Assembly (NCBI RefSeq): GCF_003334355.1
Contig: NZ_QOWP01000005.1
Strand: one strand, 5' to 3'
Length of the DNA stretch: 64,000 bases
Source of the DNA: Escherichia coli
GTDB lineage: Bacteria > Pseudomonadota > Gammaproteobacteria > Enterobacterales > Enterobacteriaceae
Position numbers and translations under genes: made by a program
Shown here: positions 355 through 24,093 of the stretch, piece after piece
Layout: each line of letters begins with the position of its first letter
Numbering within the stretch: position 1 is the stretch's first letter
Notes under the pieces: model-generated
Told to the model about the DNA's origin: nothing
Database searches by the model: none
What the model saw: the letters and a program-made list of their open reading frames with translations, nothing else

Positions 355-430
355 TTGTAAGATTGATTTTTCTTCTCAAGTTCCTTGTTCTTCTACCGAT
401 ATTACCTCGTACAGTGACGAGGACTGAACA

Positions 431-772
431 ATGGCCACTATCTCTTCAACTTCAATTCCTTCCATACAAACACAGAGTAGTAACAGGGCATCACAAGGTG
501 GCGATGTTGCTTCACAAATCGCGCGGATAAGTCAGCAAATCATCAAACTCACTCAACAAATTAAAGAGATTGTAGACACTAGCGGCAGTGCTGAAGACAA
601 GCAAAAACAGGCCGAATTGATTCAACAGCAAATCACCCTACTGGAAACACAACTGGCGCAGTTGCAGAGACAGCAGGCAGAAAAGGCGCAGGAGAAAGAG
701 CAGCGTTTGTCTCTGAATGTATCCCTTCTAAATCCTGTTGAAAAAACGACTCATATCGATATCTATATCTGA
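431..772 (+). CDS. FlxA-like glutamine-rich coiled-coil protein (113 aa), function unknown
   Basis: ORF with GAGGA RBS 8 nt upstream of ATG; Q/A/E-rich heptad-like segment ([30 protein letters not shown]) resembling the FlxA family as I recall it; not verified by search. 3' end overlaps yfeR stop by 10 nt. Confidence 0.6.
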
Positions 773-5079: not shown

Positions 5080-6066
5080 TCAGGCGTTGGCGTCTTTGAC
5101 TTCGCGGATGATGTCCTGGTACTCGCGCAATTTCTGCGGAGTCATCATACGGCGCTGATCGTCAAGCACGACACCGCCCACTTCATCGGCAATATGCTGC
5201 GCAGATTGCAGCATCAGCTTGAAGTTCTGCAGCTCGTCACCGTAAGACGGTACCTGCATAAAGATAGTGACACCCGGAGTAGTGAAATCCTTCATTTCAG
5301 GATCAAAGGTTCCCGGTTTCACCATATTCGCCAGGCTGAATAACGCCGGGCCGCTGCCATCCGGGCTAAGATGACGATGGTAAATATTCATATCGCCAAA
5401 AATGAAGCCCGCTTGTTGAATGCTGTTAAGAAGCAGTTCACCGTTTAGCTCGCTACCGTGATGCGCCGCGACGTTCATGATAATCACCGCTTCTTTGCGC
5501 TTCGGTTTATCCATAACTGGAGCCGGTTCCGCTACAGGCTCAGGCTGTGGTGCCGCTACGGGTTCTGCAGGCTGGAAAGCCTGTTGTGCCGGTTGCGGTG
5601 CTGAATGCACAGGCTGCGGCGCTGGCGCGACCTGTGGCGAAACTGGCTGCTGCAACGGCTGTTCAGGCTGCGGCTGATAGGCAGGCTGCTGCACCGGCTG
5701 CGCTGGATGCGGAGCATGTTGCGGCGGTACCTGCGCTTCAGGCGGCTGCTGGACCGGTTGACGCGGCTGCGCAGACGCATAAGGCGGTTGGTACTGGTGT
5801 TGCGGCGACGGACGAGCAGCCTCATGCTCCTGAGCGTTAGCCGGGGCATGATTCACGCGGTGAACACGAACCTCACCAACGCCCTCATCATCTTCGACAT
5901 CCTCGTCATAAGAATCGTCGTCACGTTTTGACTTCATTCGTTTTAATGGCCGATCGCGGAACATAGAAGATCGTTCTTTACGGCTGGTCCAGAAACCATG
6001 TACCAGTAAAGCGATTATGGCGATCGCGCCAACAATGATTAATATCAGACGCAAATCCTGCATCAT
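5080..6066 (-). CDS. zipA: Cell division protein ZipA (FtsZ membrane anchor)
   Basis: Start set at [22 protein letters not shown] (N-terminal TM); long P/Q-rich linker; C-terminal FtsZ-binding domain; 328 aa. Confidence 0.93.
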
Positions 6067-22788: not shown

Positions 22789-24093
22789 ATGAAACGGACA
22801 ATGCTCTATCTTTCTCTGCTGGCTGTTAGTTGTAGCGTCAGCGCCGCAAAATACCCTGTTCTGACAGAAAGTTCGCCAGAGAAAGCAGGGTTCAACGTCG
22901 AACGGCTTAACCAGATGGATCGCTGGATTAGCCAGCAAGTTGATGTCGGTTATCCCGGCGTAAACCTGCTGATCATTAAAGATAATCAGATTGTGTATCG
23001 CAAAGCCTGGGGAGCGGCGAAAAAGTACGATGGCAGCGTGTTGATGGAACAGCCTGTCAAAGCCACCACCGGGACGCTGTATGACCTGGCCTCAAACACC
23101 AAAATGTACGCCACGAACTTCGCCCTGCAAAAGCTGATGAGCGAAGGCAAACTGCATCCTGACGATCGGATTGCGAAATATATTCCGGGGTTTGCCGATA
23201 GTCCAAATGACACCATTAAAGGCAAAAACACCCTGCGGATTTCTGACCTGCTGCATCACAGCGGCGGTTTCCCGGCAGATCCGCAATACCCGAATAAAGC
23301 GGTCGCGGGCGCGTTTTATTCCCAGGATAAAGGCCAGACGCTGGAGATGATCAAGCGCACGCCGCTGGAATATCAGCCCGGCAGCAAACATATCTACAGC
23401 GATGTCGATTATATGCTGCTTGGATTTATCGTCGAGTCGGTTACCGGTCAGCCGCTTGACCGCTATGTTGAAGAGTCGATTTATCGCCCGCTCGGCCTGA
23501 CACATACGGTATTTAACCCGCTGCTGAAAGGCTTTAAACCGCAACAAATTGCCGCCACGGAATTGAACGGCAATACCCGCGATGGCGTGATCCATTTCCC
23601 GAATATCCGCACCTCCACTCTCTGGGGTCAGGTGCACGATGAAAAAGCCTTTTATTCGATGGGCGGCGTTTCCGGGCACGCAGGTTTGTTTTCCAATACC
23701 GGCGATATTGCGGTGTTAATGCAAACGATGCTGAACGGCGGGGGCTATGGCGATGTGCAGCTGTTCAGTGCGGAAACGGTGAAGATGTTCACCACCAGCT
23801 CTAAGGAAGATGCCACTTTTGGCCTCGGCTGGCGCGTGAATGGTAATGCCACCATGACGCCGACGTTTGGCACGCTGGCAAGCCCGCAAACCTACGGTCA
23901 CACTGGCTGGACCGGAACGGTGACCGTTATCGATCCGGTCAATCATATGGCGATTGTGATGTTAAGCAACAAGCCCCATTCGCCAGTTGCCGATCCACAA
24001 AAAAATCCCAATATGTTCGAAAGCGGTCAGTTACCAATTGCAACTTATGGTTGGGTAGTTGATCAGGTGTATGCGGCGTTGAAGCAAAAGTAA
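22789..24093 (+). CDS. yfeW: Penicillin-binding protein 4B / beta-lactamase-fold peptidase
   Basis: 434 aa from MKRTMLYLSLLAVSCSVSAA (signal peptide); SxxK motif in LASNTKMYA; track ORF start 22702 overlaps murP and is rejected. Confidence 0.9.
   Translation: MKRTMLYLSLLAVSCSVSAAKYPVLTESSPEKAGFNVERLNQMDRWISQQVDVGYPGVNLLIIKDNQIVYRKAWGAAKKYDGSVLMEQPVKATTGTLYDLASNTKMYATNFALQKLMSEGKLHPDDRIAKYIPGFADSPNDTIKGKNTLRISDLLHHSGGFPADPQYPNKAVAGAFYSQDKGQTLEMIKRTPLEYQPGSKHIYSDVDYMLLGFIVESVTGQPLDRYVEESIYRPLGLTHTVFNPLLKGFKPQQIAATELNGNTRDGVIHFPNIRTSTLWGQVHDEKAFYSMGGVSGHAGLFSNTGDIAVLMQTMLNGGGYGDVQLFSAETVKMFTTSSKEDATFGLGWRVNGNATMTPTFGTLASPQTYGHTGWTGTVTVIDPVNHMAIVMLSNKPHSPVADPQKNPNMFESGQLPIATYGWVVDQVYAALKQK

Follow-up and report, generated by a model that had tools for sequence, protein, structure and literature searches.

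FlxA of Escherichia coli K-12 (b1566), which is encoded in the Qin cryptic prophage, is the founding member of the Pfam family PF14282, and the protein described here (hereafter the FlxA-like protein) belongs to the same family. K-12 flxA is reported to be dispensable for flagellum formation and motility. Promoters of the sigma-28 (FliA) class conform to the consensus TAAAGTTT-N11-GCCGATAA. K-12 flxA is preceded by TAAAGATT-N11-GCCGATAG, a promoter of the same kind as the motif found upstream of the FlxA-like gene, and of these two genes the K-12 one is that for which FliA dependence has been demonstrated. FliA binds at K-12 flxA, and deletion of fliA lowers the expression of this gene from 280 to 2 units (PMC4183435, Fitzgerald et al. 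2014). K-12 FlxA was also detected in the culture supernatant, where it rises together with FlgK, FlgL, FliD, FliC, and FlgM (PMC6391000). The cytoplasmic protein CheY is present in the same supernatant list (PMC6391000); therefore, induction of the regulon combined with cell lysis explains the presence of FlxA equally well.

The small exported proteins of the late sigma-28 genes, such as FlgM, are a second point of comparison. Like the FlxA-like protein, they combine a promoter of the sigma-28 type with a small size and the lack of a signal peptide, and their N-terminus is disordered and rich in S, T, Q, and P, whereas FlgM and the FlxA-like protein have no similarity in sequence or fold. The third described system occupies the same chromosomal interval. 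In K-12 MG1655, the gene order is lysV, xapR, xapB, xapA, yfeN, and yfeR, and the xapR-xapB-xapA-yfeN cassette fills the space bounded by the lysV/RtT terminator on one side and the yfeR stop codon on the other, as the segment carrying the FlxA-like gene does here. The two differ in content and length: the cassette serves xanthosine catabolism and encodes a Tsx-like porin in 4.4 kb, whereas the FlxA-like segment measures 0.4 kb. A preliminary description of the locus had given this K-12 arrangement, and the K-12 annotation and blastn proved it correct.

A FlxA-like gene between lysV and yfeR

The whole stretch of DNA analyzed here (64 kb, hereafter the window) begins within a tRNA operon, and the features at its left end are as follows.

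1–72: partial tRNA-Val gene, belonging to the valU-valX-valY-lysV tRNA operon in which the window starts
80–155, + strand: lysV, tRNA-Lys(UUU) (ARAGORN; Rfam tRNA, 79.2 bits; annotation of the identical genome)
138–198, + strand: first copy of a 61-nt direct repeat, comprising the lysV 3' end, a terminator hairpin (158–188), and a U-run
186–311, + strand: RtT-type RNA element (Rfam RF00391, score 46.7 bits, gathering score 45; "RtT sRNA" in RefSeq)
294–354, + strand: second copy of the 61-nt direct repeat, with a second terminator hairpin (314–344)
358–761: haplotype-specific segment of 404 bp, in place of which K-12 has 4,398 bp (xapR-xapB-xapA-yfeN) (blastn)
376–403, + strand: sigma-28 (FliA) promoter motif, with the -35 box TCAAGTTC at 376–383, an 11-nt spacer, and the -10 box ACCGATAT at 395–402
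419–423, + strand: Shine-Dalgarno sequence (GAGGA), separated from the ATG by 7 nt (sequence)
431–772, + strand: FlxA-like coding sequence, 113 amino acids, ATG start (ORF list; Pfam PF14282)
741–746, + strand: run of six A residues, the site of a one-base deletion in the 159-aa variants
763–772: 10-nt stretch, CTATATCTGA, in which the FlxA-like and yfeR coding sequences overlap tail to tail (ORF coordinates)
763–1689, - strand: yfeR, a LysR-type regulator gene in convergent orientation

The lysV gene is the last of its operon and forms the left flank, yfeR forms the right flank, and both flanks are common to K-12. The interval from lysV to the yfeR stop codon measures 607 bp. The preliminary description had put it at about 600 bp with one ORF inside, and what it observed is correct throughout; to this can be added the RtT element and the 61-nt repeats with the second terminator, which also lie in the interval. 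The two repeat copies are 100% identical at a spacing of 156 (repeat search), the terminator hairpins within them have a folding energy of −19.1 kcal/mol (z −6.0), and the RtT element lies between them. K-12 also carries RtT, as judged from its sequence, and O157 Sakai is without it, as judged from the spacing. As a separate observation on this region, the yfeR gene of Sakai is a pseudogene.

The ORF of 113 amino acids with a good ribosome-binding site, which the preliminary description had likened to FlxA, was confirmed in both respects. Its product matched the Pfam FlxA model (PF14282) over residues 15–92 with an E-value of 3.2e-14 (53.3 bits), the same model was matched by 43/43 aligned relatives, and BLASTP gave 43% identity to K-12 FlxA over 74 amino acids of the helical core (E 4e-12). 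The two proteins are of similar length (110 amino acids in K-12 FlxA) and share an S/T-rich N-terminal tail, two helices, and the C-terminal sequence IDIY(I/V); by contrast, the linkers that precede their C-termini are unrelated. In RefSeq, the identical sequence is named "FlxA-like family protein" (WP_000201405.1), and the orthologue of O157:H7 Sakai, ECs_3279, is named "flxA". The gene is thus already catalogued in a known family, with an annotation as FlxA-like in approximately 1,300 complete E. coli genomes; the family assignment is correct, and its novelty is low. The Pfam match and dN/dS values of 0.02–0.18 among orthologues from other genera (see below) show that the ORF is a genuine protein-coding gene and no chance ORF. 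A scan of the protein against NCBIfam gave only weak coiled-coil noise, with nothing near the curated cut-offs, and neither the window protein in its exact form nor the Sakai allele was present in a large protein collection, in which only Shigella fragments were found. In the literature, "FlxA-like" and ECs3279 were unmentioned, and guessed Z-numbers of EDL933 returned irrelevant matches only; a paper on LysR regulators that names both flxA and yfeR makes no connection between the two.

Predicted structure of the FlxA-like protein

A HMMER search of 1.84 billion representative proteins retrieved 78 relatives at E < 1e-3. The family begins with M-T-T-I, followed by a tail of approximately 25 residues rich in S, T, and G; helix 1 has the pattern ASQIxRIxxQIxKLTQQLKE and is joined to helix 2 by a short G/S loop, and a Q/E-rich linker then leads to the C-terminus, EGVNxPSxxHQIDIYI. 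The family alignment shows that the EGVNxPS motif has been lost in the Escherichia/Pseudocitrobacter lineage. In the AlphaFold2 model built from the family alignment, the protein forms a helical hairpin (helices 24–49 and 54–99, mean pLDDT 68.8) with two disordered tails, of which the N-terminal one (residues 1–23) is rich in S, T, and Q and the C-terminal one ends in IDIYI. The N-terminus lacks a hydrophobic segment and hence a signal peptide, as judged from the sequence, and the protein has the size and fold of the FlxA family (approximately 110 amino acids, a two-helix coiled-coil core, and no signal peptide). The gene product is predicted to be a protein of approximately 12 kDa that would be synthesized in the cytoplasm and fold as an antiparallel helical hairpin with a conserved C-terminal IDIY(I/V).

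Foldseek found nothing significant in the PDB (best E-value 0.26, generic helical hairpins), and a search of PDB sequences with the family profile returned only designed coiled coils and PspA, so that neither search provided a functional analogue; the statement of the preliminary description that the ORF has no known function stands. Two candidates were set aside. The CdsO/FliJ-like hairpin at Foldseek ranks 2 and 4 was not counted as evidence. The YjfB "putative motility protein" family (PF14070), suspected to be related on account of a similar C-terminus, was dropped as unsupported, with 0 members of the alignment matching PF14070.

Conservation of the site in Enterobacteriaceae

Representative genomes of GTDB (one genome per species) were scanned with a pattern derived from an alignment of the 10 closest proteins, and the loci obtained were annotated by tblastn with the flanking E. 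coli proteins and by ARAGORN. Orthologues of the FlxA-like gene were found at no fewer than 54 loci in at least about 20 genera of Enterobacteriaceae, including Pseudocitrobacter, Kluyvera, Citrobacter, Pluralibacter, Lelliottia, Enterobacter, Cedecea, Yokenella, Leclercia, Trabulsiella, Buttiauxella, Kosakonia, Silvania, Phytobacter, Superficieibacter, and Siccibacter, among others. At all 54 loci among the matches listed, the gene lies between gltX-valUXY-lysV and yfeR-yfeH-ligA. Two loci obtained by exact protein look-up, one of them that of Pseudocitrobacter faecalis, have the same arrangement, and a distant member with 33% identity is still located between gltX and ypeB-ligA. This comparison of the lysV–yfeR synteny, which the preliminary description had proposed as a check, shows a fixed site for the FlxA-like gene, between the valU-lysV tRNA operon and yfeR, with which its 3' end interlocks.

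The genes xapRBA are missing from most genera with the FlxA-like locus, among the matches listed, and occur together with the FlxA-like gene in seven of the genomes listed. Six of the seven have the order lysV-xapR-xapB-xapA-FlxA-like-yfeR, in which the FlxA-like gene occupies the position of yfeN in K-12; these are three Enterobacter loci (Enterobacter chuandaensis, E. wuhouensis, and an Enterobacter metagenome-assembled genome) and three loci from Citrobacter, of which two belong to C. amalonaticus. The order in Silvania confinis is lysV-FlxA-like-xapRBA-yfeR. Because the FlxA-like gene is found at the same syntenic site in at least 54 genomes and at least about 20 genera, we conclude that it is an old resident of the lysV–yfeR site, that xapRBA and yfeN are the variable parts, and that the K-12-type haplotype is a replacement.

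Putative sigma-28 promoter

The motif at 376–403 reads in full TCAAGTTC-CTTGTTCTTCT-ACCGATAT-T. Both strands of the window were scanned with a position weight matrix (PWM) built from 52 K-12 FliA ChIP-seq motifs (PMC4183435, Table 2), and this site scored 16.5 bits, which ranked second among approximately 128,000 positions. Leave-one-out scoring of the validated flgKL, ycgR, trg, and fliC promoters gave comparable values. The top-ranking site in the window (18 bits, 23175–23202) lies inside pbp4b and is not a K-12 FliA ChIP-seq peak, which means that the score alone proves no function. The end of the motif precedes the ATG by 28 nt, and the transcription start is predicted near position 410, from which a leader of approximately 20 nt is expected. 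A hairpin in this leader (405–422), which would pair with part of the Shine-Dalgarno sequence, was not significant (z −1.05), and a sigma-70 promoter scan of positions 1–1900 found none. Seven sampled E. coli alleles vary between G and A at the first base of the -10 box; G is usual and the window has A. The same A stands at this position in the ycgR and fliDST motifs (PMC4183435).

A second PWM, made from 24 strong sites without flxA, was applied to the region from −170 to +40 of 54 orthologues. The median of the best matches was 16.7 bits against a 95th percentile of 7.4 bits for control windows, and 53 of the 54 orthologous loci among the matches listed exceeded this percentile. In nearly every listed locus the match is TCAAG...GCCGATA, its distance from the stop codon is roughly constant, and its spacer has diverged freely, and the same motif stands at the same distance in loci L006 and L007. 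Two relatives outside Enterobacteriaceae also carry a motif of this kind, a distant one with TCAAGTTT-N11-GACGATAA (21.7 bits) and another with TAAAGGTA-N11-GCCGATAG (11.6 bits); the motif was absent from the two most distant family members examined. From these matches we infer, with good support, that the FlxA-like gene probably belongs to the sigma-28 regulon. RNA polymerase containing FliA would then transcribe the gene from 376–403, and the two terminators of the tRNA operon would insulate it from upstream transcription. Transcription by sigma-28 would make it a class-3 (late) gene of the flagellar regulon, expressed only after completion of the hook-basal body and exit of FlgM, by analogy with K-12 flxA, for which such transcription has been demonstrated. 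The preliminary description had missed this motif, and with it the likely regulation of the gene.

Alternative haplotypes and relaxed constraint in E. coli

Alignment with K-12 by blastn revealed clean homology breakpoints at window positions 357/358 and 761/762. Positions 1–357 of the window correspond to 675–1031 of the K-12 locus (L002) with 99.7% identity, positions 762–1000 correspond to 5430–5668 of the same locus, and tblastn found no FlxA-like remnant in it. The final three codons of the ORF and its stop codon fall in sequence shared with K-12; the overlap at 763–772 is common to K-12 because this stretch is yfeR coding sequence. The FlxA-like segment was found in 1,317 of 5,426 complete E. 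coli genomes (~24%), including HS, O157:H7 EDL933, Sakai, and EC4115, and xapR was found in 4,089 (~75%; yfeN in 4,083). These two counts sum to 5,406 of the 5,426 genomes; therefore, the two arrangements are essentially alternative haplotypes, and strains with the FlxA haplotype, such as O157:H7 and HS, are almost always without xapABR, yfeN, and the xanthosine pathway of that cassette. The locus is strain-variable, as the preliminary description had claimed, and homologous recombination within the shared flanks would presumably exchange the two haplotypes. As a polymorphism between alternative haplotypes, the contrast with K-12 is ordinary and adds little by itself.

Nei–Gojobori estimates between orthologues within Kluyvera, Citrobacter, Enterobacter, Leclercia, Cedecea, and Buttiauxella gave the dN/dS values cited above at dS 0.2–1.9, and these low values indicate that the protein is under purifying selection in those genera. 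The seven E. coli alleles have 16 polymorphic codons, of which 12 are non-synonymous and 4 synonymous. All five changes between the window and Sakai are non-synonymous, and one of them is D110G in the IDIYI motif. This pattern suggests that constraint may be relaxed in E. coli, within the small numbers of 16 codons. Disrupted forms also occur: 159-aa variants have lost one base in the A6 run at 741–746 and read on antisense through yfeR, a 95-aa variant is frameshifted, the gene of strain NT1W25 is interrupted by IS1203, and strain HH97 has a scrambled third haplotype with a segment of approximately 1.2 kb. Taken together, the polymorphism, the frameshift variants, and the IS1203 insertion indicate that the E. 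coli copy may be losing its function.

It is possible, although on balance doubtful, that in E. coli the gene has become a decaying relic, in which the ORF and its promoter persist while the protein matters no longer, and that this is why it was replaced. The excess of non-synonymous codons, the change in the IDIYI motif of Sakai, the disrupted forms, the HH97 haplotype, the loss of EGVNxPS in the Escherichia/Pseudocitrobacter lineage, and the lack of the gene in 75% of E. coli genomes would all be expected of such a relic. However, at least 80% of the segment is kept in 1,308 of the 1,317 carriers, the helical core and the promoter boxes are unchanged among the sampled alleles (apart from the G/A position mentioned above), and 16 codons are too few to tell relaxed from weak purifying selection. 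Decay in E. coli is compatible with a vertically inherited, sigma-28-driven gene and does not exclude it.

Interlocked 3' ends of the FlxA-like gene and yfeR

The overlap between the ORF and the yfeR stop codon, already recognized in the preliminary description, extends over 10 nt in the window. Overlapping ends were found in 47 of the 50 listed loci that have yfeR, by 10 nt (YTAYRTYTGA) in 31/50 and by 4 nt in 16/50, and the four listed loci without yfeR keep the FlxA-like gene and its promoter. A scan for terminators on the + strand of positions 1–1900 found none and also missed both tRNA-operon terminators; folding of 740–860 (z −0.36) gave no terminator-like structure downstream of the stop codon. 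Sigma-28 transcripts should therefore run antisense into yfeR.

Such read-through raises the possibility that it is the transcription itself that matters, and that antisense RNA would couple yfeR and yfeH to the motile state. The conserved tail-to-tail overlap and the absence of a terminator-like structure after the stop codon agree with this idea, as does the presence in K-12 of a hairpin between yfeN and yfeR. We nevertheless regard it as improbable: the low dN/dS indicates that the protein sequence itself is selected, the gene and promoter are retained in the four listed loci that lack yfeR, K-12 flxA and the distant members have unrelated neighbors, and short convergent overlaps are common and may persist passively.

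Evidence on horizontal acquisition

The 404-bp segment consists of the promoter and the ORF only and carries neither an integrase nor another mobility gene. The two copies of the tRNA 3' end bracket the RtT unit and not the ORF, lie wholly to the left of the breakpoint, and are also present in K-12. A tblastn search of 50,697 phage records with the FlxA-like protein gave 0 matches. At 43.5%, the ORF has a lower G+C content than its flanks (~53%), which is explained by the Q/K/E/I-rich composition of the protein and does not outweigh the evidence from synteny. The distribution of the gene is sporadic within E. coli only, among the matches listed. None of the marks of a tRNA-associated island, namely a mobility gene, flanking tRNA-end repeats, and a distribution that contradicts vertical descent, was found. 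K-12 flxA, by contrast, is located elsewhere and is borne on a prophage, with matches in 1,200 of the 5,426 E. coli genomes and in one phage record, whereas the FlxA-like gene lies at the same chromosomal site from genus to genus and has no match among the phage records.

The preliminary description had placed the ORF next to a tRNA integration hotspot, and the picture of hotspot cargo that this implies had to be abandoned. That the segment is a small horizontally acquired islet at lysV, with xapRBA-yfeN as the native content, is very improbable and largely refuted already: the variation between strains, the low G+C content, the nearby 61-nt repeat, and the prophage location of the paralogue K-12 flxA would fit an islet, but they are opposed by the missing integrase, the position of the repeats, the conservation of the site and of the interlocked 3' end across genera, the lack of phage matches, and the xapRBA genes, which most genera lack and which, where present, lie on either side of the FlxA-like gene.

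Discussion

In this study, we compared the FlxA-like gene of the lysV–yfeR interval with the described FlxA of K-12 and followed it across Enterobacteriaceae. The gene is probably a chromosomal, vertically inherited orthologue of the FlxA family in Enterobacteriaceae, resident between lysV and yfeR, driven by sigma-28, and distinct from the flxA of the Qin prophage. For the protein, our guess is that it would have an accessory part in the motile state and be dispensable under laboratory conditions, and it could be a late substrate of flagellar export or a coiled-coil adaptor for a flagellar component. Whether FlxA-family proteins pass through the flagellar type III export system, or bind a flagellar component through the C-terminal IDIYI, is a more specific matter; we think such a role unlikely, but it would explain the occurrence of the sigma-28 promoter across at least about 20 genera, the disordered N-terminus, and the appearance of FlxA in the supernatant. 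If it were true, the FlxA family would be a conserved and unrecognized output of the flagellar system, and the interlocked 3' ends could couple yfeR and yfeH to motility.

What the analysis usefully adds is the syntenic FlxA lineage, the cross-genus sigma-28 promoter, the conserved overlap with yfeR, and, for E. coli, the indications that selection is relaxed and that the gene has been replaced. FlxA has hitherto been treated as an oddity of a K-12 prophage, and it now appears that the family has a chromosomal lineage of great age, which occupies a fixed site in Enterobacteriaceae, with a conserved sigma-28 promoter motif and strong purifying selection outside E. coli. The age of this lineage, its promoter, and the selection on it make FlxA a better candidate for a real function in the motile state, and Enterobacter, Citrobacter, or Kluyvera would be preferable to K-12 in the search for a phenotype.

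Sequence elements between lysV and the FlxA-like gene

Two short elements precede the FlxA-like gene (window 431-772, +).

138-354: duplicated lysV 3' end and terminator, comprising two 61-nt repeats 156 nt apart with an RtT-type element between them
405-422: small leader hairpin, CCUCGU-ACAGUG-ACGAGG, in which a portion of the Shine-Dalgarno sequence would be base-paired

The repeat/RtT unit is present in K-12 and the window strain, whereas O157 Sakai, EC6868, and others carry a single copy; its copy number is therefore variable, and recombination between the 61-nt repeats is presumably the source of this variation. Pseudocitrobacter has conserved the leader hairpin, but orthologues at greater distance have not; its comparison with shuffled sequences was not significant (z -1.05).

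A sigma-28-like sequence within pbp4b

The highest-scoring match in the whole window to a sigma-28 matrix built from 52 K-12 FliA ChIP-seq sites (PMC4183435, Table 2) was found at 23175-23202 (+), with 18.0 bits (GAAATATATTCCGGGGTTTGCCGATAGT), and is intragenic in pbp4b (yfeW) in the sense orientation. Because this site is absent from the 52 K-12 FliA ChIP-seq peaks, the match is probably a non-functional look-alike, or its signal is too weak for a peak call.

Disrupted and divergent alleles

E. coli HH97 (L008 2300-3520) carries a third lysV-yfeR haplotype of about 1.2 kb, which contains a partial, diverged FlxA-like sequence (86% identical over 154 nt) and long homopolymer runs without an intact ORF. 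A duplication that has since decayed, or an artefact of assembly, may explain this haplotype.

In E. coli NT1W25 (L010 2776-4430), the FlxA-like gene is interrupted by IS1203 (IS3 family) and is annotated as two pseudogene pieces split by this element. The Sakai allele has a D110G substitution within the conserved C-terminal IDIYI and adjoins a yfeR annotated as a pseudogene (L005 6445-7371). Fragments of the FlxA-like protein of approximately 46 to 75 amino acids, annotated in Shigella dysenteriae, S. flexneri, S. boydii, and S. sonnei, populate the protein-collection clusters of the 159-aa frameshift variants P0001 and P0002; one mislabelled fragment bears the name Mycobacterium tuberculosis, probably through contamination. 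The common full-length E. coli FlxA-like alleles are absent from the same collection.

Coexistence of xapRBA and the FlxA-like gene

Some Enterobacter and Citrobacter genomes possess xapRBA and the FlxA-like gene together, with the latter at the position of K-12 yfeN, and the Silvania confinis genome has xapRBA on the opposite side of the FlxA-like gene (coexistence was recorded at comparison loci L024, L036, L041, L045, L049, L055, and L038). These arrangements identify the xap cassette as the mobile partner in the lysV-yfeR interval.
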